The notes under the pieces were generated by a model. It had not been told where the DNA came from and did not search any database. It saw nothing but the letters and a program-made list of their open reading frames with translations. A program made the translations under genes and the position numbers. Shown piece after piece: positions 23,943 through 64,000 of a DNA stretch of 64,000 bases. The stretch's first letter is position 1. Each line of letters opens with the position of its first letter. This DNA comes from a virus (lineage: Duplodnaviria; Caudoviricetes). The stretch spans positions 96,001-160,000 of the IMG/VR virus record IMGVR_UViG_3300025707_000003; one strand, written 5' to 3'.

Positions 23943-24238
23943 GACTTAGGTGTCTCTATCTTGTAGTTTGCCCTCATGTATTCATCAACACCTTTAGCTG
24001 TCGTAGGCAAACTAAGATCAATAAAACTTGAGTTCATGTGAGGCATCTCTAAAACAAATCGCCTCAAGTTTTGATATTCAAGCCTCAGCATATCCAAACG
24101 GTATTCCTCACTTGAAGCACAGGAAAAGTGTGTCGGACACTTTATCATCCCTCCTTTTTTGAGAAAAATGTATCCGTCACCTTTACATTTACAGTCTAAC
24201 ATACTGTTCGTGATTTTCATTACTGTCTTTCGTTTCAC
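23876..24238 (-). CDS. Hypothetical protein with Cys motifs
   Basis: GTG start after AGGAGG; CKCKGDG..CPTH. Confidence 0.6.
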   Translation of the reverse strand: MKRKTVMKITNSMLDCKCKGDGYIFLKKGGMIKCPTHFSCASSEEYRLDMLRLEYQNLRRFVLEMPHMNSSFIDLSLPTTAKGVDEYMRANYKIETPKSWVRAIQHYVREYLLNCKVKED

Positions 24239-34741: not shown

Positions 34742-35428
34742 ATGTCAATCCCCATACCAGCGGGTGCTACAAGAGTTCAAGTAGAAGATGAGTATGGTAA
34801 ACTAATTTGGCGAAAGCCCTCCGAAATCCTAGACACCGACACAATACGCATTAACTTTAAGACAGGCGAACCTTACGCTATGTTTGGTAAGCCAGGTCAA
34901 CCAAGTTCTAATAGTGCAAATGTCAAACAAACACCTGTAAATACACCTTATATACATCCATCAAACCCACAGGCAAACATCAATCAACTACAGCAACGCA
35001 AACAAGCGAAACTAAATAGCGATGCTGTATTTGATCAGACAAAGAAAAATGCCGATTCCTCTGAGGTATTGACTAATGTATTAGTTGGTTTAGCAGAAGA
35101 GTCTGCCTCACTTGCTTTTGAAAGAGAAGAAGCAGAGCGTAGGGGTGAATCCACATCTCAGATTTCTCTAAGGAGAGTAAATGCCTTAAAAGCTGTGGGT
35201 GACACTTGGATCAAGAAAAAAGAGATAATGTCGTCTAAATCCTTAGACTTAGAGTCTAAAGCTTTTAGGCAAGTTTTTGGACACATCGCTGAAACATTCC
35301 GTAAAGCGTGTGATGAAGCAGGGGTAAGACCCGAACTAGCAGAGAGTGTTTTTGCTACCTTCGGAAAGATGGTAGATGACCCAGATTGGATGCAAGACGC
35401 TAAAAAGGCTATGGAGCGTGAGAAATAA
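34742..35428 (+). CDS. Putative terminase small subunit
   Basis: Position only: helical protein coupled to TerL by a TAATG overlap. Confidence 0.4.
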   Translation: MSIPIPAGATRVQVEDEYGKLIWRKPSEILDTDTIRINFKTGEPYAMFGKPGQPSSNSANVKQTPVNTPYIHPSNPQANINQLQQRKQAKLNSDAVFDQTKKNADSSEVLTNVLVGLAEESASLAFEREEAERRGESTSQISLRRVNALKAVGDTWIKKKEIMSSKSLDLESKAFRQVFGHIAETFRKACDEAGVRPELAESVFATFGKMVDDPDWMQDAKKAMEREK

Positions 35429-38400
35429 TGAGTTTATCTTCGGTTGCGATCTCTGCAAGTGCTAGGGCAGGTAAGAAATCAGAAAAAGACGCAGACATCA
35501 TAGAATTTGTGGAAGCATCTTGGGGATTAAAGATGACTTTGTTTCCCGTACAAAGGGTAATCCTTAAAGCACATTATGGTCTTGAGCTTGATGATGAAAA
35601 GACATTTGAAATATCTGATTGGACTAGGACCAAAATAGAGACACATACCGAGAAATCATATCTTCGTAAGATATATGAAGATGGTCGTTGCAATATAGGT
35701 GAGGTAATACCTGGGAAACAACGAAGAGAAATGATCCTCTCTATTGGTCGTAGGTCTGGTAAATGTGTGACAGGTGAGACACTCATACCCACAAATAAAG
35801 GATTGGTTCGGATTGACTCTTTAGGTGATCCCAACGGGGATGAAATACAACCACTACAAGTTAATGTCGCACAAGAGTGTGGGACAACCTCTAGGTCGGC
35901 TTATTTTTATAACGGAGGTGTTAAACCTACTAAATACCTAGAGACATTCTGTGGGTACAGGATCGAGGGTACAGGAAATCATCGCATTAAAGTGATGACT
36001 CCCGAATGTAAGATCGAATGGAAGTATCTTGAAGAGATTGAAAATGGTGATGTGGCTTGCATCAATAGATCCAGTCAGCTTTGGTCTAATGACTATGTGG
36101 ATGTAAGTCAGCACCACACTGAAAAAGATCAACCTAAATATCTTGATGAAACTTGGGGAGAGTTATTAGGATTATTAGCAGGTGACGGTCACTGGACAAA
36201 TGAGAAAGCAGTTGGTATAACAGTAGGTGAGAAAGCCTTTGAGCCTTACCTTATGTCTTTATTTCGTAACCTCTTTGGGAAAGTCTCTTATCACCCAGAT
36301 AAGCGTAAGGTTGATGTCGGTCAAGTGTTAGCCTACGGGAAAGACCTAAGAAAGTTCCTCGATAACTTAGGTTGGGTAATCGACTGCACGACTAGAACTA
36401 AAAGTGTTCCACATACAGTCCTTAAATCCCCTATGTCTGTAGTATGTGCTTTCCTTAGAGGACTCTTTGAAACAGATGGTTCGGCTTATGACTCTGCCAT
36501 TACTCTTTCTACTGCTTCTTATCAACTCGCACATGAAGTACAACTTTTATTACTAAATGTCGGAATCGTATCCAATCTCTCTAAAAGCAACCGAGAAGAT
36601 AGAACAGAACATCGAATAAGAGTCAAAGGATCAAAGTCTAAGAGACTTTTCGCTAGACACATAGGGTTCATATCAGAAAGAAAGAAAAAGTGCCTTGAAG
36701 GGGTATTATCAACAGTCTCTTATAGGGGAGGTAATGAAGGAGTACCATTCTTTTACGAGTATGTTGAACGACTAAAGAAGTTCCACCCCTATCTCAAACA
36801 TGACTTAAGTCCTACAACTAAATACACACCCTATTGGAAGATCAAGAAGGTCGCAGACCATTCGGGTTTAAATCAGACCACAAAGTCTCAACTATATAAC
36901 CTCATCGACCGCGATTACTTTTTCGACCCTATCATCAAAGTAGAACAGCGTGAAGCTCATGTCTTTGATCTGAATGTGCCTAATGGATCAATGTTTATCG
37001 GCAATGGGTTCACTAACCATAATACTACGATTTCAGCCTGTATCGCCGCTTATGAAACCTACAAGTTGATCAAAAAAGAAAACCCACAAAAGTTTTATGG
37101 ACTACCCGCAAGTAATAATATCCAAATCATCTCGGTCGCCACAGATAAAGACCAAGCAGGTTTGCTTTACCAAGAAGTATCAGGTCATTATCGCTCCTGT
37201 GCTTTTTTTGGCCCCTACACTGCAAATAATACTCTCTCCTATGCCAGATTCCAAACACCAGCAGATGTAGAGAAGTATGGTAGATACATTGAGAACCAAG
37301 ACGCTAAAGCTACTCTTAAAATCACCTTTAGATCTTGTGTCGCTAAAGGTCTTCGTGGTGCAGGTAATATATGCGTCATTCTTGATGAGGTTGCTCACTT
37401 TACTGAAACGGGTCAATCGGGAGCAGAGGAAGTATATAACGCTGTTGTACCATCGACATCTGCTTATTCAGCTAAAGACCCAGAGAACCCAACGATCCCT
37501 ATTGGTGAAGTAGAGGGTCGTATCATTCTTATCTCTTCACCTTTGGGTAAACAAGGTCTGTTCTATAACCTCTTTATGATTGGTATGGGTGGTGGTCGGG
37601 CAGGAGATAATATCCTCGCTGTCCAAGCACCTACTTGGGAAGTAAATCCCACTGTACCTGCACAAGAGTTCGAGAAGCATTACCTCAAGAATGCGGCAGT
37701 CTTCTTCACAGAGTATGGTGGGGAGTTCACAGACAGAACAAGAGGGTGGATTACTGACGAGCGTGATCTATTATCTTGTATTGACCCTCAGTTAAAACCA
37801 CAAATGGGAGCACCAGCTAGAAAACCGCACTTTATGGGAATCGACTTGGGTCTTGTAGGTGACGGAACCGCAATTGCTATTGGACATCTCGAAGGTGAAG
37901 AAATCGTTGTAGATCTCGTAGCTCAAATTAAAGCAGGAGAGGGTATCTATCACGATAAAGAACGATTGGAGTTTGATGATGTCGCGGATTGGGTACTAGA
38001 GTTTACAAAGAAGTTTTATATTCAAGAGGGAATGTTTGACCAATGGGCAGGGATTCCTTTCCAACAGGCACTTGAAAAGCGAGGTCTAAAAAACCTCAAA
38101 TCTACTAATATGACTAAACAGATCACCTCACAAATGTATCAGAACTTTAAGGACATGATGTGGGATCAAAAGGTCAAACTCTACAATCGACCTAACTATG
38201 AAACAGAAGGACATGAACCGTATATCCAAGAACTCTTAGAGCTTCAACAAACGGTGCATGGTAAACACCTCATAACTGTCGAAGCTCCACAAACTAAAGG
38301 TAAACATGACGATATGTCGGACGCAATTGTACGCATGGCATGGCTCGCCTCTAATAACATCGGCAAAGGGCGATACTTCGCTTCAGGGTCTAAAGGAAGT

Positions 38401-38553
38401 AGACAATTCAGACACCCTATGGCAGGTGGTAAAACCTTTGCTACAGGTGGAAGGTATACAGGTCGAAGTGGGTCTGACGCTAAAAGGGTTGCACCTAAAT
38501 CACCTCGCTATAGCCTAAGAGACTCTATCAATGGTCGCTTTGGGAAAAAGTGA
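35428..38553 (+). CDS. terL: Terminase large subunit containing an intein
   Basis: Walker A GRRSGK|T split by the intein, Walker B VILDEVAH, ILISSP coupling motif, nuclease GIDLG and HDDMSDA. Confidence 0.92.
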   Translation: MSLSSVAISASARAGKKSEKDADIIEFVEASWGLKMTLFPVQRVILKAHYGLELDDEKTFEISDWTRTKIETHTEKSYLRKIYEDGRCNIGEVIPGKQRREMILSIGRRSGKCVTGETLIPTNKGLVRIDSLGDPNGDEIQPLQVNVAQECGTTSRSAYFYNGGVKPTKYLETFCGYRIEGTGNHRIKVMTPECKIEWKYLEEIENGDVACINRSSQLWSNDYVDVSQHHTEKDQPKYLDETWGELLGLLAGDGHWTNEKAVGITVGEKAFEPYLMSLFRNLFGKVSYHPDKRKVDVGQVLAYGKDLRKFLDNLGWVIDCTTRTKSVPHTVLKSPMSVVCAFLRGLFETDGSAYDSAITLSTASYQLAHEVQLLLLNVGIVSNLSKSNREDRTEHRIRVKGSKSKRLFARHIGFISERKKKCLEGVLSTVSYRGGNEGVPFFYEYVERLKKFHPYLKHDLSPTTKYTPYWKIKKVADHSGLNQTTKSQLYNLIDRDYFFDPIIKVEQREAHVFDLNVPNGSMFIGNGFTNHNTTISACIAAYETYKLIKKENPQKFYGLPASNNIQIISVATDKDQAGLLYQEVSGHYRSCAFFGPYTANNTLSYARFQTPADVEKYGRYIENQDAKATLKITFRSCVAKGLRGAGNICVILDEVAHFTETGQSGAEEVYNAVVPSTSAYSAKDPENPTIPIGEVEGRIILISSPLGKQGLFYNLFMIGMGGGRAGDNILAVQAPTWEVNPTVPAQEFEKHYLKNAAVFFTEYGGEFTDRTRGWITDERDLLSCIDPQLKPQMGAPARKPHFMGIDLGLVGDGTAIAIGHLEGEEIVVDLVAQIKAGEGIYHDKERLEFDDVADWVLEFTKKFYIQEGMFDQWAGIPFQQALEKRGLKNLKSTNMTKQITSQMYQNFKDMMWDQKVKLYNRPNYETEGHEPYIQELLELQQTVHGKHLITVEAPQTKGKHDDMSDAIVRMAWLASNNIGKGRYFASGSKGSRQFRHPMAGGKTFATGGRYTGRSGSDAKRVAPKSPRYSLRDSINGRFGKK
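35764..37023 (+). mobile_element. 420-aa intein with a LAGLIDADG homing endonuclease
   Basis: Starts CVTGETLI, ends FIGNGFTNHN followed by Thr(+1). Contains block B TGNHRI and motifs LLGLLAGDG and FLRGLFETDG. Confidence 0.95.
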
Positions 38554-40824: not shown

Positions 40825-40898
40825 TTAAGAATAAAGAGATCTCCTATGGATAACCTATAAATAAACTATCAATAGTTCTGGTTCTCCCAAGTCGCTGT
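40825..40898 (+). repeat. 74-bp perfect direct repeat, copy 2 (includes the last codons of the 40869 gene)
   Basis: Identical to 39646-39719. Confidence 0.92.
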
Positions 40899-42245
40899 AC
40901 GACCACGCTTCTCCAACGCATCAGATACCGTAGCCTTATCAGAGTCCATAGGGTAAGCACTGTCGGGTGTAACAGGATAAACAGCATCTGCTCTAGCTGT
41001 GTAGGTATCTCTCTGTGGCCAGTAACCATAACGAGTCTCAGGCCATGACACAGGAACTCCCTCAATAGGGAATCTATATCGTATGTCACCACTATCCAAA
41101 TACGCTATGTTGAAATGCTGTTGAAGAACATTACCTCTGTTCGATGGCATATTAACAGCACCACATGAATACCGTTCATTATTAGGTTTAACTATAAAGT
41201 CTTTCTGACTCACAATAGGACTAGGGCCGATCCACACCTCGTAGGAATGTTCCTTACGCCTACCACGATCTTCTTGACTAATCCTACGCTCACTGTCATT
41301 AGGGCCGACTATGATGTCATAAGGTCCATCATAACCTCCCTTAATACCTGTGCCGAAACAAATCGTACAAAGACTGTCTGGTTGCTTCGCATATTTAAGG
41401 GTCTCTTTATTGAAGGAGGTACAATAACAAGGTATCCCTGCTATCCTACGAGTAAATAACTTAACCCGTTCCCCCCCTTGTTCAAGTATCCAGTTATTAC
41501 GCCTTATCCCTTCTCTCCACATATAATCTACACGCTCAAGCTCTCTATCTGAGAAGGGCTTGCAATGCTCTAAAGGGGTTTCATGTAATACGCTTGTTTT
41601 TGGGTCTTCTGCTACTGTCGCTATACGATAGAAATCACGCTTATCTGTACCAAGTCTTAAGCGACTCTCTGGGTCATAAGCAATATAACTTATAGTGACC
41701 ACCGTATTGTCATCTATCGAAGGAGGTAAGCTATCTTCGGTTAAAGTGATGGCATCGGGTTTGGGTCTACCTGTAAAGAATAAAGTAACCTCACCAAACT
41801 CACCAAGCACTCTCGATGTGGGTACGATAACACCGTTAATCATTACCACAACATCTCTTGGTGAATCAGCAGGGTCATTGATGCTATTTTGTCTCGCTAT
41901 CGGGTACTCCACTTGAAACCGATAAGGATCTTCACCTTGATCCCCTTTAGAAATCCACTTGTCTGCTGGGATGACTTCATCATTAACTGCCCATGTGTCT
42001 ATTCGATCTCTGTATATTGTTCCACCGATAGGTGTGATGTTCACCCTACGATAAGGGCCACGATCAGAGTTGCCCGATCTGTATATGTTCACACCACGAA
42101 CAATCCAACCCTCATTTCCATGTAGGATTGATGGGTTATCCCAATGGACATCTATCTCACCCTTAGCGAAAGGGGAGACAGCACTCGTATTTCTTGGTGG
42201 TACAGGCCAAGGACTTCTACTGTCGTACCAACCATGTTGTGCCAT
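40869..42245 (-). CDS. Putative virion structural protein (FN3-like N-terminus, CxC..CxxC motif)
   Basis: IDVHWDNP..GVNIYRS..GPYRRVN and PCYC..LCTICFGTG. Confidence 0.5.
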   Translation of the reverse strand: MAQHGWYDSRSPWPVPPRNTSAVSPFAKGEIDVHWDNPSILHGNEGWIVRGVNIYRSGNSDRGPYRRVNITPIGGTIYRDRIDTWAVNDEVIPADKWISKGDQGEDPYRFQVEYPIARQNSINDPADSPRDVVVMINGVIVPTSRVLGEFGEVTLFFTGRPKPDAITLTEDSLPPSIDDNTVVTISYIAYDPESRLRLGTDKRDFYRIATVAEDPKTSVLHETPLEHCKPFSDRELERVDYMWREGIRRNNWILEQGGERVKLFTRRIAGIPCYCTSFNKETLKYAKQPDSLCTICFGTGIKGGYDGPYDIIVGPNDSERRISQEDRGRRKEHSYEVWIGPSPIVSQKDFIVKPNNERYSCGAVNMPSNRGNVLQQHFNIAYLDSGDIRYRFPIEGVPVSWPETRYGYWPQRDTYTARADAVYPVTPDSAYPMDSDKATVSDALEKRGRTATWENQNY

Positions 42246-42246: not shown

Positions 42247-42288
42247 ATAATCTCCCATGTAAGCGATATTTACTTATAGGGAGATTAT
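42247..42288 (-). promoter_or_regulatory. 10-bp perfect hairpin over the SD of the 42245 gene
   Basis: ataatctccc pairs with gggagattat. Confidence 0.6.
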
Positions 42289-42315
42289 AAATGACTTATT
42301 ATTCTCTCACTTCAA

Positions 42316-42834
42316 TTAATCATCGCCCTCAAAAGTGATCTCTACCTTTTCTTCTCCACCCTCGTCCTCCGCATCTTGTTTGGGGTCTATCCATTGTTTG
42401 ACGACACCTTTGAGTTTCACTTGCTCTTCAGTCGTAGTTTTAATAACTTTCTCTCCATGAAAAAGAGAAAGTTTGTCAATGACTGCGGATTGAAGCTCAA
42501 ATATTTGTTCTCTTAAAAGTTGCATCTGTATTTGTGCATCTCTCAACCTAGCGATTAATGCTTCCCTATCCCCATTAGCAGACGCAAGTTTATCTTTGAG
42601 TTCTTCTACTTCGGAAGGGTCTCTACCACTAGCGATGGCTAACATAGATGAGATACTGCCTGTGAGCATACCTATGATCCCAATAAGTATATCTCTGTTT
42701 TTCTCTACTATTTCATGCTTCGCTAAGAACCATATCAAACCTATGATCAAGAGCATGAAGACTACAGAAGCCCACCAACCTCTTTTCGCCTTTTCAGATT
42801 GAGTGAACTGTTTATTTGTTTGTTTTTTAGACAT
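42316..42834 (-). CDS. Two-TM membrane protein with a coiled coil
   Basis: Two hydrophobic helices followed by a heptad-rich segment. Confidence 0.65.
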   Translation of the reverse strand: MSKKQTNKQFTQSEKAKRGWWASVVFMLLIIGLIWFLAKHEIVEKNRDILIGIIGMLTGSISSMLAIASGRDPSEVEELKDKLASANGDREALIARLRDAQIQMQLLREQIFELQSAVIDKLSLFHGEKVIKTTTEEQVKLKGVVKQWIDPKQDAEDEGGEEKVEITFEGDD

Positions 42835-42843: not shown

Positions 42844-43686
42844 CTAGAACAGATTCTTAAAGAACTCTGAAATGAAAGAAATGAATGCGTCATACTTGGG
42901 CATATGGTAAGGAAGTCCGATCAGAGATCTTGCAACAGGTCTTGTAGATAGTTGAAAAATAATATGAAGCCAGAACAAACACGCTATAAACCCAGCCCTC
43001 CAAAAGACATAGAGAACCCAGTCTTTCAAGACTCTATCTCTTGCTCTTTTCTTAATGTATTTAGGCCCACCTAGTCTTTTTACTTTCTCAGATCCTAGAG
43101 GAGGCTGTAGCGATTCAATGGTTTCACCAACCGCATATATTTCTTGTGGTTCTTTCACCCCTTTAAATTTATACATACCTACACAAGCAAATCGGGTGCT
43201 TTTTGGTGTGTGCATATTCGTTCTGTTTCGAGTGGCTAACATTGCCTCCTTTGTGAGGAGAACTTGACCTTTTTGACAAAGAGACATTGTTCTAGCGGCA
43301 ATGTTTTTTGAGAGTCCTTCAAGTTCGACTCTCTTAGCTCCAGCTCCAACATAGACATCATCTTGTTCTACTTCAATGATTTTACCCCAGTGTATACCGA
43401 TACGAGTATTGATCTTTATTTTTGGTGGGATTGTTTTTTGATAAGCGAGAGCAAAGTTAACTGCATCTACAGGTCGGTCAAAAGACAATAGAAAACCATC
43501 AGAACGATCTATCTCTCTGCCTTCATGCCGATAAACAAGATTTCTAGCCATACGATCATGGATTTGAAACCACTGAGCCGCCACCTTAGCTCCCACCCTT
43601 TGAACGAAAGCAGTAGACCCTATCAAATCTAAGAGAACGATAGCTAAGTATCGTTCTTTCATAGTAATATCATGATCAAAGGGCAT
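42844..43686 (-). CDS. Class III nucleotidyl cyclase with a C-terminal TM segment
   Basis: LLDLIGST, REIDRSDGFLLSF, RIGIHWG, LEGLSKNIAAR and GQVLLT. Confidence 0.82.
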   Translation of the reverse strand: MPFDHDITMKERYLAIVLLDLIGSTAFVQRVGAKVAAQWFQIHDRMARNLVYRHEGREIDRSDGFLLSFDRPVDAVNFALAYQKTIPPKIKINTRIGIHWGKIIEVEQDDVYVGAGAKRVELEGLSKNIAARTMSLCQKGQVLLTKEAMLATRNRTNMHTPKSTRFACVGMYKFKGVKEPQEIYAVGETIESLQPPLGSEKVKRLGGPKYIKKRARDRVLKDWVLYVFWRAGFIACLFWLHIIFQLSTRPVARSLIGLPYHMPKYDAFISFISEFFKNLF

Positions 43687-43690
43687 GGGT

Positions 43691-43897
43691 TTATCTCCAG
43701 AGACTTTTTATGTTCTCACAAGGTGTGTTTAATATCTTATCTGCTAATTCATCATTACAAGTAAAAGCAGGGATATATTCAACACACTGATAAATATGGT
43801 TTTCTGCCTTTTCACAAAGGGTTCTATCTTCATTTGGAATATCTTCACAAGAAACTAATAATCCAAATATACATAAGAGGTATCGTGTGTTTTTCAT
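43691..43897 (-). CDS. Small putative lipoprotein
   Basis: Signal peptide with a lipobox-like LVSC and additional Cys residues. Confidence 0.5.
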   Translation of the reverse strand: MKNTRYLLCIFGLLVSCEDIPNEDRTLCEKAENHIYQCVEYIPAFTCNDELADKILNTPCENIKSLWR

Positions 43898-43899: not shown

Positions 43900-44220
43900 T
43901 TAATATCCTATAAAGGCAAACTCTTGCTTTTTAATGACTTCAAGAGGCGAGGAGTCAGTGCGTTTGATAACCCATTGGACAAAGTAAGATCCTGGAATAA
44001 ATCCCGCAGATAACATTTCCCCTACATAGTATTTGCCTGTCTCTTCTTTTACAGGGTATCTTTTTTCAACACCCACTCGCCACTCACCTCTAACTTCATC
44101 TGTACCATAGAACGAATAATAGATTAAGTAAGGATCAAAGCCATTGCCTTGATTGCCGAAGATTTCTACTCTTAAATCATTTGGACCCATTTGGGTTCTT
44201 TGTACAAAGATCACTGACAT
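43900..44220 (-). CDS. Hypothetical beta-rich protein
   Basis: 106-aa ORF in the operon. Confidence 0.65.
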   Translation of the reverse strand: MSVIFVQRTQMGPNDLRVEIFGNQGNGFDPYLIYYSFYGTDEVRGEWRVGVEKRYPVKEETGKYYVGEMLSAGFIPGSYFVQWVIKRTDSSPLEVIKKQEFAFIGY

Positions 44221-44222
44221 AA

Positions 44223-44555
44223 CTATACTACCTCAATAAAAGTGTCTCTTGAGGAAACAGATATGGTTTGCTCTCCGTAAACAAGAGCGTTGTCAGCGAC
44301 CATCTCTGCTTTAAACTCGACAAAGATAGTTTGTCCTAAAACACTATCAGGTATGGTGAAGCGATAAACGAAACGGTGAGCTTGATCTGTGGCTACCATA
44401 GCGTTTGGCCCATCTAAGATTGTTCGCACATCCTCCACATAGTGAAAAAGGGTTGTCTCTACATTCTGTATGTTGAGTGGTTTGAGATCAAATCCAACCC
44501 AAGAAATCTGACAGGGGATTGTATCCCCAATATGTGCGTTAGTGTTATAAATCAT
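44223..44555 (-). CDS. Hypothetical beta-rich protein
   Basis: ATG after GAGGAG; class B motif at 44588-44600. Confidence 0.65.
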   Translation of the reverse strand: MIYNTNAHIGDTIPCQISWVGFDLKPLNIQNVETTLFHYVEDVRTILDGPNAMVATDQAHRFVYRFTIPDSVLGQTIFVEFKAEMVADNALVYGEQTISVSSRDTFIEVV

Positions 44556-44556: not shown

Positions 44557-44617
44557 TGATGATCTCCTCTCACATATAAAATAAATTATAAATAGACTAT
44601 AAATGAGGAGATCATCA
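44557..44617 (-). promoter_or_regulatory. 13-bp perfect inverted repeat enclosing a class B motif and covering an SD
   Basis: tgatgatctcctc pairs with gaggagatcatca. Confidence 0.65.
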
Positions 44618-45895: not shown

Positions 45896-46783
45896 TTAAC
45901 CGTTCGCTTCGAGTACAGTTAAAAGTCCAGAAGTAGTTTTGACTTTATTGATCTTCATTAGGTATTTCACCTCTAGTACTAAAATTACAGCGAAAACGGA
46001 TGAAATCCCTACTGAAGCGATAAGTTTAACTAAAGCTCCATTGGCAGGGGGAGGTAGGATTAGCTCTAAGATAATCTCGATACCTTCTCCTGGCAACATA
46101 GCCACTAAGTTGCTAAATGAAATTGTACCTAAAAGCCCTGCTACGACAGCTTTAAAATCAAAGTCTGCAAACCAATCCCAGATTTGGAAAAAGAGATAAA
46201 TCTTGATGGGTGCAGAAAGAGCTTTAAGGGTTCTTGAAGTTCCAAGAACACCATCAAGGAACTCACCTAGTTTGGTTGTACCTTGTTCTATTTTTGCTAG
46301 TGCAGACTTTACAGAGTCTGGAACATAACTCTTATACTTGTTTATTAAATCTTCCCATCGGTTCTGTTCTTCTAACACCTCTCCAAGAAGACGAAGCAAA
46401 GGTAGCTCTTTTAATATCTTTGTGGATAAACTACTGAGCTTTTTCTTACCCTCTTCAAGAAGGTCACCTAGCTTTTTGTCGATTTGTTTAATCATGGAAA
46501 ACACATTTGTGGCTGTGACCCCTAACATAGATTTAAACTTTTGCCATGCTTGAGGTGCTTTCTTAAACAAAGTAATCAGTTTCTTCACCTTCTTCACTAT
46601 CTTCATAAATGCTTTTCTTTGAGTGAAGTCTTGGCGACTGTTCGCAGTTAAGTGTTTAGCAATAACTTGTATTGCTTCAATGGAAAGATCCGAAGAGGTT
46701 GCCCTCTTCAAGTTCGGACTTTGATCGTAGGCGACTTGACAAGCAATTCTAACCATATGTTGTTGTACTATTCTATCTAACAT
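45896..46783 (-). CDS. Hypothetical protein with hydrophobic C-terminal helices
   Basis: Class B motif at 46824-36. Confidence 0.65.
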   Translation of the reverse strand: MLDRIVQQHMVRIACQVAYDQSPNLKRATSSDLSIEAIQVIAKHLTANSRQDFTQRKAFMKIVKKVKKLITLFKKAPQAWQKFKSMLGVTATNVFSMIKQIDKKLGDLLEEGKKKLSSLSTKILKELPLLRLLGEVLEEQNRWEDLINKYKSYVPDSVKSALAKIEQGTTKLGEFLDGVLGTSRTLKALSAPIKIYLFFQIWDWFADFDFKAVVAGLLGTISFSNLVAMLPGEGIEIILELILPPPANGALVKLIASVGISSVFAVILVLEVKYLMKINKVKTTSGLLTVLEANG

Positions 46784-55989: not shown

Positions 55990-56262
55990 TTAACCTTTAT
56001 ACATAATCTTGTAATCATGCTCCCCCATACGCTTGTATGACTCAATCTGCTCCGCATTCGCTTGCTCTATCTCATCCGAATCTCCCCAAAGAGTTAGCTC
56101 TTTGCCCCAATATCGCCCTAGATTCAAGTATTCAGAAGAAGTCATTTTTAATAAGTCTTCCACAGCTTCCTGTTTGGAGACTGGTAGTTCCAAGCCATGT
56201 CTCTTTATGTATTCTTCACAAGTCATTTGTCTTCCCTGTATTGGTAAAGGTGGTTGAAACAT
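55990..56262 (-). CDS. Hypothetical protein
   Basis: 90-aa ORF downstream of the class A motif at 56400-16. Confidence 0.55.
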   Translation of the reverse strand: MFQPPLPIQGRQMTCEEYIKRHGLELPVSKQEAVEDLLKMTSSEYLNLGRYWGKELTLWGDSDEIEQANAEQIESYKRMGEHDYKIMYKG

Positions 56263-56302
56263 GGTTATAGATCAAGGGATGTCAAATTGTATGCGTTTTC
56301 AA

Positions 56303-56335
56303 TATGGGTTTTCGGGACTCCCCCAAAAACCCATA
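56303..56335. other. Intergenic stem-loop
   Basis: tatgggtttt pairs with aaaacccata (10 bp), with an inner ggg/ccc pair. Confidence 0.5.
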
Positions 56336-56415
56336 GAGTCTTTGATGGGGTTCTGAGAGAATGTTGATTAACCCTGTCTTTGAGGGACGAGAAGACCTTT
56401 ATATTCAAGGGGTTA

Positions 56416-57042
56416 CTACTTCGCATCCGTATCTTCCTTCGGCTCGGTTTTCCCTTTTAGCTCGCTTATTTCTTTTAGGAGCTGATCACGCTCTGCTTTC
56501 AAGTGACTATTATTTTGGTAGTATGCGTTGAGGTGGTTGATCATGGTTTCTTTCGGTACGCCCTTCTTCTTGAGATGGAGGTCTTGAAGGGTAACACTCT
56601 GCCATGTTCCGTTTGGGTTCTGACATTCAGCGAAACAAACTACAGAGACTACCTCTCCTTGCACCACTTCGCCAGTATAGGATCTGTAATAGTATATGTC
56701 TCCTGCTCGTGGTAGGTCAGAGCTTGAGAGCTTGGGGTCGGTGTGTACCTCTTTTGGATGAGGGGTCTTAGTAGGAATGTTTGGTTCGGAAATAGGCTCT
56801 TCGACTGGTTCGGAATTATCTGGTTCCGAAGTCTCACTCCAAACGACAACATCCCCAAAAAGATCTAAGGGGTCTGCTTCGGCTGGGTTTCTAATCATGT
56901 CACCGTCAAGAATAAAGTCTCCGTTCTTAATGCATTGGTCGAGGACCATCTTAAAACGAGCATCGCCCATTCTTTTAACGCCCAACTCCTGCTTCGCTAC
57001 CTCTTTAGCCTTCTTGATCGTCAGCCCTATGAGTGCCTTCAT
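56416..57042 (-). CDS. Hypothetical protein
   Basis: 208-aa ORF whose stop abuts a class A motif. Confidence 0.7.
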   Translation of the reverse strand: MKALIGLTIKKAKEVAKQELGVKRMGDARFKMVLDQCIKNGDFILDGDMIRNPAEADPLDLFGDVVVWSETSEPDNSEPVEEPISEPNIPTKTPHPKEVHTDPKLSSSDLPRAGDIYYYRSYTGEVVQGEVVSVVCFAECQNPNGTWQSVTLQDLHLKKKGVPKETMINHLNAYYQNNSHLKAERDQLLKEISELKGKTEPKEDTDAK

Positions 57043-57356
57043 AGCTCGCCCTCCATACCATCGCCATAGTCGTCATCATCTAGGGCATAGTATTCATCCT
57101 CATCATCGGCACTGTCAAAGTCGAGCATCTCCTCGACCATCTTCTTTAAGATCTGTGCTTTGATCGTTTGGTGGTGGGTTACCTCGACTGAGGAGATGCC
57201 ATAGTGGTGTGCCATGTCCTTGACCTCCTCATAGTTCTCAAGTTCCTCTATGAATGACTTAGCCCATATCTTCGCATCGCTCTCACTTAATCTCTCACTG
57301 TGAGCTTCGGAGATAAGGTCTTGTAGGTGTCCACAGTTATTAGCGTATGTCGTCAT
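57039..57356 (-). CDS. Hypothetical acidic protein
   Basis: ATG 4 nt after the previous stop; the start is reassigned from 57476. Confidence 0.6.
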   Translation of the reverse strand: MTTYANNCGHLQDLISEAHSERLSESDAKIWAKSFIEELENYEEVKDMAHHYGISSVEVTHHQTIKAQILKKMVEEMLDFDSADDEDEYYALDDDDYGDGMEGEL

Positions 57357-57360
57357 ATTA

Positions 57361-57735
57361 CTAGTCTCTACTTTCTTGCCATTCATCATAGCTCGCCATC
57401 GTTTGTATATCCTCATTAAACTGCCTTCGCAAGAGGGAGGTCTTAGTTCGGATAGTTTGGTGATCTCCCCATCCATTTATTTGATTTGGGTCATGATCCT
57501 CACCCCAACCTTGAGGGTTCTCTGATCGTAGGTTGATCCAAGCTCCAAGAGCTGACTCATATTGAGCCACCTCAGTGCTGAACTTACTGACCTCTGCCAC
57601 CCACTCGCTAGGGGTAGGAGGAACATCAAGATCAGCAAAGGCTCGCTCGATCTCTCTCCACTCCCCACGAAAAGGTTGGGGTAGGCTGTTTCGGATGGTG
57701 GCGTATTGTGCTCGTTGTTTTTCTATGGTCGTCAT
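57361..57735 (-). CDS. Hypothetical protein
   Basis: AAGGAGG RBS; class A motif at 57759-75. Confidence 0.72.
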   Translation of the reverse strand: MTTIEKQRAQYATIRNSLPQPFRGEWREIERAFADLDVPPTPSEWVAEVSKFSTEVAQYESALGAWINLRSENPQGWGEDHDPNQINGWGDHQTIRTKTSLLRRQFNEDIQTMASYDEWQESRD

Positions 57736-57774
57736 GTTGACCTCCTTCTACACCTTTATATAAATAAGGGGTTA

Positions 57775-58416
57775 CTACTTCGTATTGCCCTTATGGTGAA
57801 CGATGCAGTCATAGTGTACCTCCACCATAGACCCTACACGCTTGATCTTCTTCACCCCTCGCTCTTCTAGCAACTCGACTCTATAGTAGTTGCGACCCCA
57901 TGCTCCCCCTGCCCCGATGACCTTAGCTCGTGTGCGTTGTCCACCACCACCTGGCGTACCACTGAACACGATCTCATCACCGATCTTGATCTCACTCTTG
58001 TTGGGTCGGTTATCAGAGACCCAGTCCAACCGAACCAACTTGAGGAACCAGTTGCCAAGATGAGCATCGTTATGAGACTGGGGCTTATCGTGTCCTCTCC
58101 ATGTCTGATAAGGGTAGGTTATAGAGTTTGTACAGTTGCCATATAGACTCACTGTAGACGCTCCATCCTTAGCCCATGTCAAGGTGAGGAAGAAGTCGCC
58201 AAACCCCTCCTTTCGGAGTACGAGATCCACCTCACCCGACAACTCAATGGCAGGTTTGGGGATCACCTTAAACCCTATCTCCTCTGCTAGATCAGTGAAG
58301 AGCTTGATGTGTCGGTCATACCACGACTGCATAGACCCTTTGGTCTTGTATGCAGTCTTGTGATGAGGTGTCGGGATCATCTTGCGAACCCCATTGATCT
58401 TCTGAGTTAAGGTCAT
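57775..58416 (-). CDS. Hypothetical protein with a C-terminal SH3/KOW-like segment
   Basis: IKIGDEIVF..RAKVIG..YYRVEL. Confidence 0.7.
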   Translation of the reverse strand: MTLTQKINGVRKMIPTPHHKTAYKTKGSMQSWYDRHIKLFTDLAEEIGFKVIPKPAIELSGEVDLVLRKEGFGDFFLTLTWAKDGASTVSLYGNCTNSITYPYQTWRGHDKPQSHNDAHLGNWFLKLVRLDWVSDNRPNKSEIKIGDEIVFSGTPGGGGQRTRAKVIGAGGAWGRNYYRVELLEERGVKKIKRVGSMVEVHYDCIVHHKGNTK

Positions 58417-58438
58417 TAGCAGTCTCCTTTTATTACAG

Positions 58439-58491
58439 TACCCTATAAATAAGGGGTTACCATTAGGCTGTAACCCCTTATTTATAGGGTA
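58439..58491. promoter_or_regulatory. Back-to-back class A motifs forming a perfect 22-bp inverted repeat
   Basis: taccctataaataaggggttac, 9-nt spacer, gtaaccccttatttatagggta. Confidence 0.85.
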
Positions 58492-58528
58492 ACATCAATC
58501 ACTCTCACTCCCCCAAACGGAGAAAAAA

Positions 58529-59122
58529 ATGACTGCGACACAAACCATATTCTTTATATCAGCACTCGTGTTCGTTGGTACCAGCATCAACGCAGGTAAA
58601 AAGGCTTTTGAGGGCAGGGCTGTTTACCACAGCCAATGCTCAATCAACCCTAATCCTGTGCAGTACCAGGGTCACACTGGGACAGTGAGTGTCCGTAGGT
58701 GGTGGTATGTGGATACTGTCACATTTGCTCAGATCAAGGCTAATAAGGCACAGCATAAAATTTGTGAGAGCGTGAAGGTTCTCATGTCGAGTGAGGCTGA
58801 GGTTGCTGAAGCTGAGAGGCTTCAAGATGTCGCCAATAACTGGATCATCTTCTTCTTCGCTTGGCTTGGTCTGGGTGTCTTGATTGAGCTTGTGAGGGTT
58901 CAGATTGGCAACAGGCGGGAGCGTCTTGACCGACTCAACGCTGAAGCAGAGCGAGATCTTGAAGCATCAGCGAGAACTGAGTTCTGGGTCTCTTATGCGA
59001 CAGCTAAGGAAACTGAGCGACAGAGATCTAAGACAGCTAATGAAGAACGAGCCAGACGAAAGGCTGATAGGGGAGCGACCCTTGAAGCTAAAAGGATTGC
59101 AAACCTAGAGCGTAAGGGATAA
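58529..59122 (+). CDS. Hypothetical two-TM protein with a coiled-coil tail
   Basis: Hydrophobic N-terminus and central helix. Confidence 0.7.
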   Translation: MTATQTIFFISALVFVGTSINAGKKAFEGRAVYHSQCSINPNPVQYQGHTGTVSVRRWWYVDTVTFAQIKANKAQHKICESVKVLMSSEAEVAEAERLQDVANNWIIFFFAWLGLGVLIELVRVQIGNRRERLDRLNAEAERDLEASARTEFWVSYATAKETERQRSKTANEERARRKADRGATLEAKRIANLERKG

Positions 59123-59126
59123 CGAA

Positions 59127-59714
59127 ATGACACTAAGAGAACAAATCCAAACACGAGCCGAGATTCTAGGTCAGTTAGGTGGTCGAGGCACCCTTATGAC
59201 CCAAGAAGAGTATGTACTCGATAAGGGTGCTGAGATGGCTTCTAGTGAGACTTTAACAGAGGAGCAGTACTCGTACCTCAAAATGATCACAGGAATGATT
59301 GAGTGCCTCCCTAAGCAGTGTTTCCATAATGCTCAGATGATGACCCTTGCCGACAGCTACCGAGTCCACCAGAGGGTCAAGTATCACGAGGGCTATGTGT
59401 GGACTGGTTTTATGCCTATCCTCCATGCGTGGATCACCCTTGACGATAAGATTGTTGATGTGACTCTTAGCACTGACCCAGAGTCTACTCAACGCTTCCT
59501 TGCAGGAGATTCGCCACAGGGAGACTTGATGGACAGGGTGCTTGGAGTGATCCCAGATGAGTGGGAATATCTAGGTGTGCCTATGGAGAGTGAGTATGTA
59601 GTTTCCACGATGATGAAGAATCAGGAGTCCCGTTCACTCATCGACAATTGGCAGGACGGATGGCCTCTACTTTCTAAAGTGAGTTCCTCTTTAGATACGA
59701 ATACGAGGTCGTAA
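59127..59714 (+). CDS. Hypothetical protein (KQCFHNA..YHEGY..ILHAW family)
   Basis: Transglutaminase-like C..H pattern. Confidence 0.65.
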   Translation: MTLREQIQTRAEILGQLGGRGTLMTQEEYVLDKGAEMASSETLTEEQYSYLKMITGMIECLPKQCFHNAQMMTLADSYRVHQRVKYHEGYVWTGFMPILHAWITLDDKIVDVTLSTDPESTQRFLAGDSPQGDLMDRVLGVIPDEWEYLGVPMESEYVVSTMMKNQESRSLIDNWQDGWPLLSKVSSSLDTNTRS

Positions 59715-59727
59715 CCCCTTATATAAG
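59711..59727 (+). promoter_or_regulatory. Class A motif overlapping the upstream stop codon
   Basis: gtaaccccttatataag. Confidence 0.6.
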
Positions 59728-59764
59728 AGTAAATATCAATCACCCACTTCTCAACGGAGACAAC

Positions 59765-60199
59765 ATGGTAAACCTACTCTCAACAATCATCATCCTCGAA
59801 GCTTGCAAAGGCTTTGAGACTTATGACGAAACCTTTGATCGTATGATCCCGACAGCAGGTGCAGAGATCAAATCTTTGAGCTTCGATATACACCCCTCTT
59901 ACTTTGAAGATGAGGACTATAACGCCATCGCACCACTCGCACTGAAGGTGGCTACATACGATGTCATCTGTGATCCGAAGGATCGAGAGGCAATCGTGGA
60001 AGCAATCGCCAAAGGCTTTGAGGGTGTGTCGGATCATGTGAAGCTTTTCAGCATCAAGATGACCTCAACCACCAAGACTTTTTGGAACGCTCGTAAGGGT
60101 AAAGCCACCACTCATAAGAGCCACCATCAACCTCAGCTTGTAATCACTTATAGCGAGGACATGAGAATCAACCTCAAGGATCGTGAAACGAACTTCTAA
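59765..60199 (+). CDS. Hypothetical protein
   Basis: CGGAG RBS. Confidence 0.7.
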   Translation: MVNLLSTIIILEACKGFETYDETFDRMIPTAGAEIKSLSFDIHPSYFEDEDYNAIAPLALKVATYDVICDPKDREAIVEAIAKGFEGVSDHVKLFSIKMTSTTKTFWNARKGKATTHKSHHQPQLVITYSEDMRINLKDRETNF

Positions 60200-60252
60200 G
60201 ATGTCGTAGCGTTCAGTGAAGGGTCTAGGCTAGGGTTGCTCCTTTAATGCTC

Positions 60253-60534
60253 TTAGAGGGCAATCTGAGCGTCCTCTTTGACCATTACTAAACGATAGGC
60301 GAACTTGAGCCAATCCTCTGCATTGTTCCCCCCTTGCCACATGAGGAGTTGTACCTGCTTTTCATGTTCTCCCCAGTCAACTAAGGTCTTAGCATTAAAG
60401 GTCATCCATCGATTTCTCAAGTCTCGGTAATGACCTCTTGCTAAGTCTTCCCACATTGGAAGCCAGCTTGAGCGTGTCTCCCTTGACTTACGAAGCAACT
60501 GGATAAGGTCGGTGGTAATCATTTCTCTAGTCAT
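60253..60534 (-). CDS. Hypothetical protein
   Basis: 93-aa ORF; class C motif at 60573-81. Confidence 0.65.
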   Translation of the reverse strand: MTREMITTDLIQLLRKSRETRSSWLPMWEDLARGHYRDLRNRWMTFNAKTLVDWGEHEKQVQLLMWQGGNNAEDWLKFAYRLVMVKEDAQIAL

Positions 60535-60599
60535 TTTAGTGTCCTTGAATCATATTTAAGAGTACCTATTTATTATATGATTTGGGCTACTAAGGACTC

Positions 60600-61142
60600 T
60601 CAATAACTGATGTCTTTATGAGCTGGACTACTCTTATTGATCTTCTTACGACAGATGGGGCCGATAGCTTGCTTTAAGCTCGAAGGGTTAGTGAGGGGGA
60701 GAGCACATCTCGCACACTTGGCTTCACACATGATCTGTAGATTATCGGGCATCTCGAAGTCTTGGTCAGTAGATACTCCTAAGAGCCAGACGAGGGTTTC
60801 GTAGCCGATGTCGAGTCGGGGCTGATTGAGGTTCAGTCCGCATTGGATTCGGAGCGTACCTCTCTCATCGACTGTCCCGATGGTCTGATACACAGGGTCA
60901 TACAAGCTGTTAAGTCCATGTAGGTTAAGGCTCACTTCAACAGGTTCATTGACGGTCTGCCCCTTTAGACGAGTCGCCTTGTAGGTGAGGTGATTGTCCT
61001 TACGCTCGTTGCCGAAGGTGAACACCCAGGACTTGGTTCTCTTGGACGGAAGGGCGACACCGTTATGGTCATGTGTCGCCCCGAAGAAAGGGGCTGTAAG
61101 GTGAGCGAGGAACTCACTAGGTTTTATCTCGACTTGCTTCAT
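60600..61142 (-). CDS. DUF6011-like Zn-finger protein, paralog A
   Basis: CARCALPLTNPSS..AIGPIC; the start is reassigned from 61196. Confidence 0.72.
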   Translation of the reverse strand: MKQVEIKPSEFLAHLTAPFFGATHDHNGVALPSKRTKSWVFTFGNERKDNHLTYKATRLKGQTVNEPVEVSLNLHGLNSLYDPVYQTIGTVDERGTLRIQCGLNLNQPRLDIGYETLVWLLGVSTDQDFEMPDNLQIMCEAKCARCALPLTNPSSLKQAIGPICRKKINKSSPAHKDISY

Positions 61143-61714
61143 GGGTTCTCCTTTTCGATTAGTGCTTCGACCTCTATCAGAGCCTTGTCTACCCATGAGG
61201 GGGTCTCAGTCTCGTTGTGGTCTTTCAGAATGGATAGGTTCTGGTGGAGGTTGTAAGGAAGGAAGCTATAGTGATGTAAGGCTTGTTTCCACTCTTTGAC
61301 CTCCAGTGGAGGAGAGAGGTCAAGGTCGTAAGCCTGATCCTCAAGAAGATCTCTTAACTCATCCTCTCGCTCGTCCTCATCCAAGTTTGGATCAAGGGTA
61401 GCCTTAGCCACTTCCTCATCAAACCATGAGCGTTTGACATCCCAAGGGTACACTCCATCCATGAGACAACACTCGCACAGTTCTGGGTCCGCTTCGTAGT
61501 CGTCATATCCGACCTGAAACATACGCCCTATCCGACCTTCTCCGCCACACTCTTGACACTCTACAGCGTCTGCGTAGGATGAGGATTGGAGGCGAGCCTT
61601 AGCTTCTTCGAGTGAAGCCTTAGCTGACTTCAACTTTTTGAGGTCTTGTTGGATCGCCTCAGTGAGTTGCTCGGAGGTGAAGTTTAGGTCTTGAAGTGAG
61701 GGGTAGTAGCTCAT
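61139..61714 (-). CDS. Hypothetical protein with a CxxCxGxG motif
   Basis: CQECGGEGRI..CECC. Confidence 0.68.
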   Translation of the reverse strand: MSYYPSLQDLNFTSEQLTEAIQQDLKKLKSAKASLEEAKARLQSSSYADAVECQECGGEGRIGRMFQVGYDDYEADPELCECCLMDGVYPWDVKRSWFDEEVAKATLDPNLDEDEREDELRDLLEDQAYDLDLSPPLEVKEWKQALHHYSFLPYNLHQNLSILKDHNETETPSWVDKALIEVEALIEKENP

Positions 61715-61777
61715 GTTGGCTTCTCCATTTGGGAGTGATGGGGTGCGTGATTATTCTGCACCCCTCTTACATAGTCT

Positions 61778-61794
61778 TATAGATAAGGGGTTAC
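61778..61794 (-). promoter_or_regulatory. Class A motif
   Basis: Minus strand reads gtaaccccttatctata. Confidence 0.65.
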
Positions 61795-61956
61795 GACTTC
61801 GTACTTAGCTCACTACAATAGCATCACACCACCCTAGATTTCTCGCCCCAGGGTAGTAGGCATCGAAGTCAAAGGCTCTGCCCGAAGATAGACAAAGCCT
61901 CACGATCTCTTAAATGCCCCTCTAAGAGCCTCCCGACCCCCAACCCACCCTAGCCC

Positions 61957-62481
61957 TTAGACCCCTCGACTTACCTTGCTCGATGAAGCCTTCTTGCGAC
62001 ATACTGGCCCCATGCCATCGTCCACACTGTCTGGGTTGGTGAGCTTCTTAGCACACCGACAGCATTTAGAAGCACCCTTGATCTCAAGAGCGTCTGGAAG
62101 CTCCACCCCATTGTTGAGCTTCGTGATAAGCCACACGAGGGTACGATCTGCCACAGTCTTGCGATCAGCATCTACCACGCTCTTAGGGCTTGCCTTGTAG
62201 AACCCTCTTGGGCTGACCGAGCCGATGAAGCCGAAGTCTGAGGAGTTATCCTTGCCGACCATGAGGTCGATGAGGACAGGGCTTTCAACAGTCCACCCAC
62301 GAGGGCGGCGAGCCTTGAAGGTGAGGTGGGTATCACGCTCGTTGTTGTGGAGCGTGAATGTCCACGCCTTGCTTGAGGTTGATGGGAGAGCCTCGCCCGA
62401 CTCGCTGTGGGTGTCCTTGCCACCGAAAGGGGCGAGGAGAGCTGGAAGGAAGTTGTCGGATGTGATGTTTACTGTGTTCAT
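61957..62481 (-). CDS. DUF6011-like Zn-finger protein, paralog B
   Basis: CCRCAKKLTNPDS..GMGPVC; shares WTFT..N.R..HLT.KA with paralog A. Confidence 0.75.
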   Translation of the reverse strand: MNTVNITSDNFLPALLAPFGGKDTHSESGEALPSTSSKAWTFTLHNNERDTHLTFKARRPRGWTVESPVLIDLMVGKDNSSDFGFIGSVSPRGFYKASPKSVVDADRKTVADRTLVWLITKLNNGVELPDALEIKGASKCCRCAKKLTNPDSVDDGMGPVCRKKASSSKVSRGV

Positions 62482-62521
62482 TTTGTTCTCCGTTTGGGAG
62501 TTAGGGTTGGTGAGGATTGCT

Positions 62522-62553
62522 CCCCTTACACTATCCTATATTTAAGGGGTTAC
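62522..62553 (-). promoter_or_regulatory. Class A motif with a CCCCTTA-N14-TAAGGGG dyad
   Basis: Minus strand reads gtaaccccttaaatataggatagtgtaagggg. Confidence 0.7.
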
Positions 62554-62574
62554 AGCATGGACTAATCGTTGCTC

Positions 62575-63390
62575 TTAGATGTAGCTCTTAGCCTCTACTC
62601 CTGTGGATGACTTGACGATCTTCTCAAGATGATCCATCATGCGAGGTGCGATCTCAAGAGCAGACTTACCACTGATACCGTTAGGCAAGTTATCCCCCTG
62701 TACACCTAATCCGATACCGACTAGTTTGATACCTTGGGCTTGGGCTTGGAGTCTCATTGATTCTAAGTAAGCCTTCTCGTAGTCTTCACCATCAGTGAGG
62801 AAAAAGGCGATCTTATGAGTAGCATTAGATTTAGACACCATGTCGATTGCAGTTTCGGCATAGCAGACGATACTTGTCCCACCACTGCAACGCTTATTAC
62901 GAAGCCTATCAGGATTATCTCGTTGCCATTTATCACCAAGACCTTTGATCATGTTAGCTACAGGCTTGTAGCTTGAACTTGCCATAGGGACATCTCTATC
63001 CCCATAGGTGTACATGACTAGGGCAGAGCTTGAGTCAACCCCGATTGATTGACATGAAGTATGGAGTCCATTTATGAGGCTGATACACTCATTCCAATAG
63101 TTTCCACTAGGAGTAGTATTGCTATAGTTCATGCTGTCGCTCCCATCACAGGCGAAACTGAAAGCCGCTCTCACTTGTGGCTTCTGATACATCTTGATGT
63201 GCCGATCTTTATTCACTTGTCCAGTTCTTACGCTTACAAGCGTATTCACTAAAGCTGTGGAGCGAGTGTTGAGTCTCGCACCTATGAAGTTTTGACCAGC
63301 CTTTTGGTTAGCAACCTCTAAGGCTCTGCGAACCTTATTAGTGCCTCGACCAAGAGCCGAGAGGACTTTGGTGTCATATTGGTTTGGCAT
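62575..63390 (-). CDS. VWA-domain protein (CobT-like)
   Basis: MIDAS DGSDS, GGT and FLTDG, LVGIGLG. Confidence 0.8.
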   Translation of the reverse strand: MPNQYDTKVLSALGRGTNKVRRALEVANQKAGQNFIGARLNTRSTALVNTLVSVRTGQVNKDRHIKMYQKPQVRAAFSFACDGSDSMNYSNTTPSGNYWNECISLINGLHTSCQSIGVDSSSALVMYTYGDRDVPMASSSYKPVANMIKGLGDKWQRDNPDRLRNKRCSGGTSIVCYAETAIDMVSKSNATHKIAFFLTDGEDYEKAYLESMRLQAQAQGIKLVGIGLGVQGDNLPNGISGKSALEIAPRMMDHLEKIVKSSTGVEAKSYI

Positions 63391-63417
63391 TGTCTTTCTC
63401 CTTTCGAGAGTTAATAG

Positions 63418-63434
63418 GATAGATAAGGGGTTAC
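63418..63434 (-). promoter_or_regulatory. Class A motif
   Basis: Minus strand reads gtaaccccttatctatc. Confidence 0.62.
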
Positions 63435-63992: not shown

Positions 63993-64000
63993 GAGAAAGT

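Follow-up and report, generated by a model that had tools for sequence, protein, structure and literature searches.

The window analyzed here is a 64,000-nucleotide stretch of viral DNA (Caudoviricetes; positions 96,001 to 160,000 of the IMG/VR record IMGVR_UViG_3300025707_000003), and its minus strand carries a small cassette of about 1.4 kb that joins a class III nucleotide cyclase to a small membrane protein. The cyclase ends in a single transmembrane (TM) helix, and the second protein, referred to as the partner, contains two. The reading considered most probable, with a confidence somewhat above even, is that the cyclase is an active, tail-anchored enzyme of the XC_0250/TIGR04510 subtype that would convert GTP to cyclic GMP (cGMP) and work with the two-TM partner at the host membrane. 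Because the cyclase always stands beside this small and very conserved protein, the cassette of this uncultured marine giant phage suggests that such phages produce a second messenger of their own at the membrane of the host. The features on which this reading is built are the following.

43686-42844 (minus strand): 280-residue tail-anchored class III cyclase (open reading frame (ORF), Pfam PF00211, TIGR04510, AlphaFold2 and Foldseek)
43069..43665 (minus strand): cyclase-homology domain, residues ~8-206 (profile alignment to Rv1900c and Ma1120)
42955..43017 (minus strand): C-terminal TM helix of the cyclase, residues 224-244 (Kyte-Doolittle hydropathy)
42834-42316 (minus strand): 172-residue two-TM membrane protein, the partner, directly downstream of the cyclase gene

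Fold, active site, and membrane anchor of the cyclase

The class III fold is recognized both in the sequence and in the predicted structure. Pfam Guanylate_cyc (PF00211) matches the protein at E 9.9e-6, its 25.7 bits exceeding the gathering score of 21.9, and the AlphaFold2 model (predicted local distance difference test score, pLDDT, of 89.7) finds its best PDB matches in the mycobacterial class III adenylyl cyclases Ma1120 and Rv1900c (Foldseek probability 1.0, TM-score on the target 0.84-0.90). Ma1120 (PDB 4wp8, 5d15) and Rv1900c/LipJ (1ybt, 1ybu) are also the nearest solved folds by profile comparison (E 2.6e-20 and 2.6e-16), and both have the two metal-binding aspartates and the arginine in common with the phage cyclase. 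The differences lie in the low identity of 22-26%, in the C-terminal helix, which anchors neither of the two, and in the lysine that Ma1120 carries in place of the phage Asp60.

The profile alignment to these two proteins identifies D20 and D63 as the metal aspartates. D60, located in the motif E-I-D-R-S-D-G, aligns with the adenine-specifying lysine of Ma1120 in a loop that is one residue shorter, and Rv1900c has an asparagine at this position. The second base-pocket position is taken by E121, which is an aspartate in both Ma1120 and Rv1900c. N128 and R132 form the transition-state pair, with a histidine at the asparagine site in Rv1900c, and R95 falls in an R-I-G-I-H motif. D20, D60, D63, R95, K118, E121, K127, N128, and R132 are the same in all of 64 distinct phage sequences, while the TM tail keeps hydrophobicity only. 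An adenylate-type Lys/Asp specificity pair is absent, as the lysine position is occupied by the invariant D60. An earlier note, made from the DNA letters of the window, had described a class III cyclase that is anchored in the membrane, belongs to an unusual subtype, and has both metal aspartates but the adenine-specifying lysine replaced in EIDRSDG; this description is borne out by the PF00211 match, the structural model, the TM helix at residues 224-244, and the positions of D20, D63, and D60.

Because the metal aspartates, Asn128, and Arg132 are invariant in the 64 phage homologs, the cyclase is probably an active enzyme. The same residues bear on a contrary proposal, in which the protein would be a catalytically silent scaffold or a decoy that heterodimerizes with cyclase-domain proteins of the host, such as the STAND- and TPR-fused relatives, and blocks them. 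Class III domains dimerize, some of the bacterial relatives are cyclase-NACHT/AAA-TPR or kinase-cyclase fusions, and such fusion cyclases are grouped as a predicted immune clade in the Pucsar preprint (bioRxiv 10.64898/2026.08.12.744502). However, the invariance of all catalytic residues is what would be expected of an enzyme, and the phage clade keeps the canonical asparagine that is missing in many bacterial relatives. A silent scaffold or decoy is therefore rated highly improbable.

The predicted TM helix of the cyclase is spanned by a helix at residues 220-248 in the AlphaFold2 model. A basic juxtamembrane stretch (net +8) comes before it, and a poorly conserved tail of ~35 residues comes after it. 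Because a strongly basic stretch precedes the helix, the cyclase domain should, by the positive-inside rule, be the cytoplasmic part of a tail-anchored protein.

Relation to TIGR04510 and XC_0250

The suggestion in the earlier note that the pattern was TIGR04510-like holds for the cyclase domain and fails for the rest of the family profile. TIGR04510 matches the phage protein with E 2.1e-47, residues 15-204 covering profile positions 7-204 of 814. The score of 162 bits lies below the cut-off of 400 bits, and the TPR region has no match in the phage cyclase, which ends at residue 280 after its one TM helix. The protein carries the signature of the TIGR04510 cyclase domain, EID(K/R)(S/T)DG and GAKxxExEG, and both motifs are present throughout the bacterial family.

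The family can be connected to a guanylate cyclase that has been studied biochemically. XC_0250 from Xanthomonas campestris is an 886-residue protein composed of a cyclase domain and TPR, and the cell needs it for its cGMP. In vitro, the fragment of residues 1-220 turns GTP into cGMP and does not act on ATP, and the neighboring gene XC_0249 encodes a cNMP-GGDEF protein that binds cGMP (An et al. 2013, PMC3770947). An ORF from a Xanthomonadales-group genome (L201:5030-7687), reached via the family of a Lysobacterales metagenome-assembled genome (MAG), served as a stand-in for XC_0250. It is a true TIGR04510 member (885 bits) with a length of 885 residues, or 886 if the second metal aspartate is numbered residue 71. 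Its residues at 41/71/73/150/157/161 are D, D, F, A, L, A versus D, D, L, A, L, A in XC_0250 (PMC3770947), and a cNMP_binding+GGDEF gene lies directly before it, as XC_0249 does before XC_0250; the stretch with both genes is L201:3795-7687. Such an upstream gene was verified with Pfam in 8/8 tested bacterial loci, the stand-in included, and was seen in ~39/110 bacterial loci (L092-L201) by a regular-expression motif scan only. Because length, residue positions, and the cNMP_binding+GGDEF neighbor agree, there is a high probability that TIGR04510 is the XC_0250 family. It is likewise highly probable, judged from these sequence features, that the TIGR04510 domain makes a cyclic mononucleotide that is read by a cyclic nucleotide-binding domain (CNBD). 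The NCBIfam name "putative peptide modification system cyclase" likely understates a guanylate cyclase function.

Over residues 16-204 the phage domain and the XC_0250-like stand-in show 41% identity, and D60, E121, K118, K127, and R132 are common to the two. On account of this identity and the common base-pocket residues, the likeliest product of the phage cyclase is cGMP. That the phage makes a cyclic nucleotide, as the earlier note had supposed, appears well supported by the invariant catalytic residues, the link to a guanylate cyclase family, and the cNMP-binding receptors of that family. XC_0250 and the phage enzyme belong to the same cyclase-domain subtype, with the EID(K/R)(S/T)DG, GAKxxExEG, and K-x-x-x-A-R motifs in common, and differ in build outside of it. 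XC_0250 is a soluble protein with a long TPR region that is paired with a cNMP-binding GGDEF receptor, whereas the phage protein lacks TPR, carries a C-terminal TM helix, and is paired with a two-TM coiled-coil protein. Within the domain, the transition-state site is occupied by Pro, His, or Ala in the bacterial family and by Asn in the phage clade.

A different substrate has to be weighed at this point. The phage could make cAMP, cUMP, or cCMP instead, for example to drive CRP-type regulation in the host. The nearest solved structures are adenylyl cyclases, and sequence is a poor guide to the base specificity of class III enzymes. In addition, the three residues by which BcPycC recognizes UTP include an Asp and an Arg (PMC11224242), whose estimated location near the second metal aspartate loosely resembles that of D60/R61 in the phage protein. 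Against a different substrate stand the invariant aspartate in place of the adenine-specifying lysine, the failure of XC_0250, the only characterized family member, to use ATP, and the marginal similarity to PycC. This alternative is rated distinctly unlikely.

The residue numbering of the characterized enzyme deserves a separate remark. D41 has been described as a metal ligand in XC_0250, with the Asn/Arg pair replaced by L157/A161 (PMC3770947). The alignment to Rv1900c/Ma1120 puts the metal aspartates of the XC_0250 family at about 28 and 71, and a K-(P/N/H/A)-x-x-A-R motif is conserved ~20 residues before L157. This motif aligns with what are presumably H402/R406 of Rv1900c. From these alignments, the published assignment of L157, A161, and D41 (PMC3770947) seems to be shifted by misalignment.

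Distribution and phylogeny of the cyclase

A HMMER scan of 1.84 billion representative proteins returned 5756 cyclase relatives at E <= 1e-3. The few closest ones are short (245-291 residues) and align nearly end to end, TM helix included. The remaining relatives are bacterial proteins of 640-2300 residues that have only the cyclase domain in common with the phage protein, at ~40-46% identity. Their cyclase domains are fused to TPR, to STAND NTPases (NACHT, AAA_16), or to Ser/Thr kinases, and in other long relatives to a TM segment and periplasmic PD40 (Pfam-confirmed) or PEGA-like (by eye) domains.

IMG/VR contains 338 cyclase relatives, and the best 80 show 58-87% identity over nearly the full length. 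One cyclase each is encoded in five related giant-phage genomes, three of which are >=95% complete. A tblastn search of the cyclase against 50,697 GenBank phage records found no relative. In the closest genomes the cyclase is 71-87% identical versus 90-97% for RecA, exonuclease, sliding clamp, and a 458-residue neighbor, and thus diverges faster. The literature search found no paper describing the cassette and nothing relevant on phage-encoded class III, adenylate, or guanylate cyclases.

A quick and unrooted maximum-likelihood tree places the short tail-anchored forms all on one side of one branch, with a Shimodaira-Hasegawa-like approximate likelihood ratio test (SH-aLRT) value of 99. The other side of that branch holds all 90 remaining rows, nearly all of them long bacterial forms.

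In the bacterial genome collection a single short tail-anchored cyclase was found, in the MAG "bacterium ARS1290" (L116:4646-5798) and on a contig that may be phage-derived. On its upstream side it abuts a 113-residue ORF with an N-terminal hydrophobic segment followed by coiled-coil-like sequence (by eye). This ORF has no detectable homology to the two-TM partner of the phages, and the theme of a TM/coiled-coil partner may have arisen twice.

The two-TM partner

A partner homolog adjoins the cyclase in 73/79 phage loci. The six loci without it all end less than ~400 nucleotides downstream of the cyclase, so that the count is effectively 73/73 where it can be tested. Most pairs are joined by a 4-nucleotide stop/start overlap; one locus has a 727-nucleotide insertion between the two genes, and in another their order is reversed. 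The pair recurs in at least three genomic neighborhoods, namely the RecA/structural region found here, a position beside a thyX-like gene (by eye), and a third context. The partner is an obligate companion of the cyclase in these phages.

According to hydropathy and charge counts and the secondary structure of the AlphaFold2 model, the partner consists of a basic N-terminus, two TM helices connected by a loop of ~10 residues, a helix at residues 73-124, and an acidic tail. Its juxtamembrane stretch is acidic (net -10) versus the basic stretch (net +8) of the cyclase. Because of the positive-inside rule, the ~50-residue helix should be cytoplasmic. Across 59 distinct partner sequences there is no variation in TM2, in the juxtamembrane segment, or in most of the long helix, and the partner is better conserved than the cyclase. 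Its homologs number 1476; the few source names among them are "hypothetical protein" or evident mis-annotations, and the nearest Atlas clusters are 100% viral. A PDB profile search with the partner returned nothing, and fused (Rosetta-stone) forms were absent among the longer proteins, which is weak evidence.

Comparison with nucleotide-based defense systems

Pycsar and Pucsar resemble the cassette in that a class III-type cyclase is encoded beside a small membrane protein. Their effectors are CNBD-TIR proteins or three-TM pJV1-spdB3 proteins (PMC11224242; bioRxiv 10.64898/2026.08.12.744502), and Pucsar cyclases make cGMP, which is reported to act as an antiphage messenger with TM effectors (bioRxiv 10.64898/2026.08.12.744502). 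The differences are that the partner has no CNBD and two TM helices rather than the three of the pJV1-spdB3 type, that the phage cyclase is itself membrane-anchored, and that the pair is found in giant phages from IMG/VR viral contigs instead of a bacterial defense island. The kinship to Pycsar implied in the earlier note did not withstand the profile searches. The PycC hidden Markov model (HMM) of PADLOC reaches only E 0.01 and 13.3 bits on the cyclase, versus 2e-47 for TIGR04510. None of the genes beside the cyclase matches a Pycsar effector model in PADLOC, where the partner matches nothing at E <= 1. Membership in Pycsar/Pucsar is rejected on both counts.

SLATT domains (PF18142 and relatives) offer a second comparison, as they combine two TM helices with a following helix and are encoded beside a nucleotide-making enzyme. 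Weak SLATT_fungal matches were obtained for 13/24 partner homologs, all of them sub-threshold (best E 8.8e-4 in Pfam and 6.6e-3 in NCBIfam), and they are accompanied by equally weak matches to unrelated TM families. A profile-profile comparison of the partner to true SLATT sequences by hhalign gave a probability of 0.3-5%, a weak negative given the small SLATT alignment. As the matches stay below threshold and are no better than those to unrelated TM families, and hhalign is negative, SLATT homology is not supported and the relation is kept as a lead only.

Functional likeness without kinship is a separate matter, and the cassette could still be a Pycsar/Pucsar-like device in which a nucleotide alarm opens a pore formed by the partner. 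Such a device would bring about superinfection exclusion or the abortive killing of rivals, or act as a timed holin. The tight coupling of cyclase and small TM protein speaks for it, as do the reported role of cGMP in the Pucsar preprint and the topology of the partner, which is class-II-holin-like (N-terminus in, two TM helices, charged C-terminus). The weak SLATT matches add to this, since SLATT is an effector domain of nucleotide-signaling conflict systems, and no other receiver is encoded in the related phage genomes examined. On the other side stand the profile searches and the hhalign result given above, the three-TM build of the described TM effectors, and the surroundings of the cassette, near which no endolysin was found. 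The proposal is judged unlikely.

Proposed mechanism

In the favored reading, a cyclase cut down to its catalytic domain and a C-terminal anchor would sit at the inner membrane of the host, with the catalytic domain on the cytoplasmic side. Class III cyclases in general are head-to-tail dimers. A head-to-tail homodimer of the phage protein would use two metal ions, bound by D20 and D63, together with Asn128/Arg132 to cyclize a nucleoside triphosphate, most likely GTP to 3',5'-cGMP. The partner, whose translation appears coupled to that of the cyclase, would most likely be part of one complex with it and would either regulate the cyclase or receive its product. The phage would in this way raise a cyclic nucleotide in the infected cell, to be read by host proteins or by the partner. 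Its target could be host signaling, which the earlier note had considered alongside a co-opted envelope-sensing module, or else defense or the timing of membrane events.

Several points weigh against this reading. The product is carried over to the phage enzyme across ~41% identity and the deepest split in the tree, where, in the quick tree, the phage clade branches as sister to all of the bacterial members sampled and does not lie inside the XC_0250 clade. The membership of XC_0250 in TIGR04510 is itself deduced from length, residue positions, and gene context rather than from the XC_0250 sequence. The activity of the phage members is a prediction from sequence and model, their Asp/Glu base-pocket pair is putative, and the Asn at the transition-state position sets the phage clade apart from the Pro, His, or Ala of the bacterial family. 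A receiver is also not apparent. No nucleotide-binding domain was detectable in the partner by Pfam, NCBIfam, PADLOC, and PDB profile searches. cNMP_binding (PF00027), GAF, and GGDEF (PF00990) domains were absent from the five related giant-phage genomes, whereas the control genomes were matched, and neither the window nor 91 phage loci gave a match to a cNMP-GGDEF profile.

A bolder version of the favored reading, possible and on present evidence doubtful, is a self-contained second-messenger switch of the phage. The cyclase would supply cGMP, and the partner would be a receiver of a new type, lacking any recognizable nucleotide-binding domain, that works as a gated pore or as a regulator and times membrane events. 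These events could be lysis, superinfection exclusion, or the shut-off of host envelope functions.

Gene run and genomic surroundings

Cyclase and partner belong to a run of five closely packed genes on the minus strand with intergenic gaps of 2-9 nucleotides, the putative late operon of the earlier note. The further features of the run are the following.

44587..44605 (minus strand): promoter-like word in two copies (TATTTATA, CATTTATA), upstream of the five-gene run
44555-44223 (minus strand): 110-residue protein of unknown function, starting at the ATG at 44555; its homologs likewise have 110 residues
44220-43900 (minus strand): 106-residue protein of unknown function, head to tail with the lipoprotein gene
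43897-43691 (minus strand): 68-residue Cys-rich lipoprotein, directly upstream of the cyclase gene

The lipoprotein has a signal peptide with the lipobox L-V-S-C17, and C17 and four further cysteines are invariant in five homologs. A lipoprotein and a two-TM protein as flanking genes had been noted before, and both are found, the lipobox ORF upstream and the two-TM ORF (42316..42834, minus strand) downstream. The lipoprotein as a core part of the module, by contrast, is not supported, given its presence in only 13/79 loci. The two small upstream genes (43900..44555) occur in 11/79 loci and have no match in Pfam, PHROGs, or PADLOC; PHROGs also gives nothing for the cyclase, the partner, or the lipoprotein. 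The lipoprotein and the two small genes are accessory. A lysis cassette with the partner as holin and the lipoprotein as o-spanin is not supported either, given the same count of 13/79 and the five related genomes, in which no T4-type lysozyme was found and one SLT domain lies 56 kb off in one of them.

The promoter-like word YATTTATA occurs 16 times in the window versus 5.1 expected, a number that 0/100 shuffles reach, and several located copies stand just upstream of gene starts. After the upstream pair, the next copy is at 42286-42293, past the partner gene. It belongs to the gene of the 458-residue protein just downstream of the cassette (40869-42245, minus strand). This protein is 96% identical across related phages and far more conserved than its neighbors; it has several cysteine pairs, no PHROGs match, and a weak, sub-threshold match as its sole Pfam hit, and may be a virion protein or one that binds zinc. 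Farther upstream, a 295-residue protein (45896-46783, minus strand) has a C-terminal part that is hydrophobic by eye and could cross the membrane several times. It is fast-evolving (67-82% identity between relatives) and has no significant family match.

The window is otherwise phage-like, with a terminase large subunit, PhoH, a GroEL-like protein, RecA, a sliding clamp, and an exonuclease. Its closest relatives are IMG/VR contigs of 226-376 kb, and megablast of the 10-kb region against the 50,697 GenBank phages gave no match. The terminase large subunit (35428-38553, plus strand) is unusually long, with 1041 residues and a helicase-like N-terminal part. Its homolog in a 375-kb contig (L007:3255-7340) has 1361 residues, the additional length pointing to an insertion in the form of an intein or of an extra domain. 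The G+C content rises from ~0.41 to 0.47-0.49 in two 2-kb blocks (12001-14000 and 22001-24000) and in the last 8 kb (56001-64000), which suggests foreign or differently evolving segments.

Biological significance

Cyclic mononucleotides are housekeeping signals of bacteria and, since Pycsar and Pucsar, have also been known to raise the alarm against phages. A cyclase carried by hundreds of viral contigs and widespread among giant phages of the sea that have not been cultured would show that viruses also write the cyclic nucleotide code. A product that is cGMP could enter the cGMP and c-di-GMP circuits of the host or collide with cGMP-based defense. For the bacterial family, the comparison provides a functional handle on the misleadingly named TIGR04510 as most probably the XC_0250 guanylate cyclase family, which is genomically tied to cNMP-binding GGDEF receptors. 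Should the cassette prove to be a self-contained switch, the virus would be using a signaling logic for which anti-phage systems of bacteria have been the only known examples.

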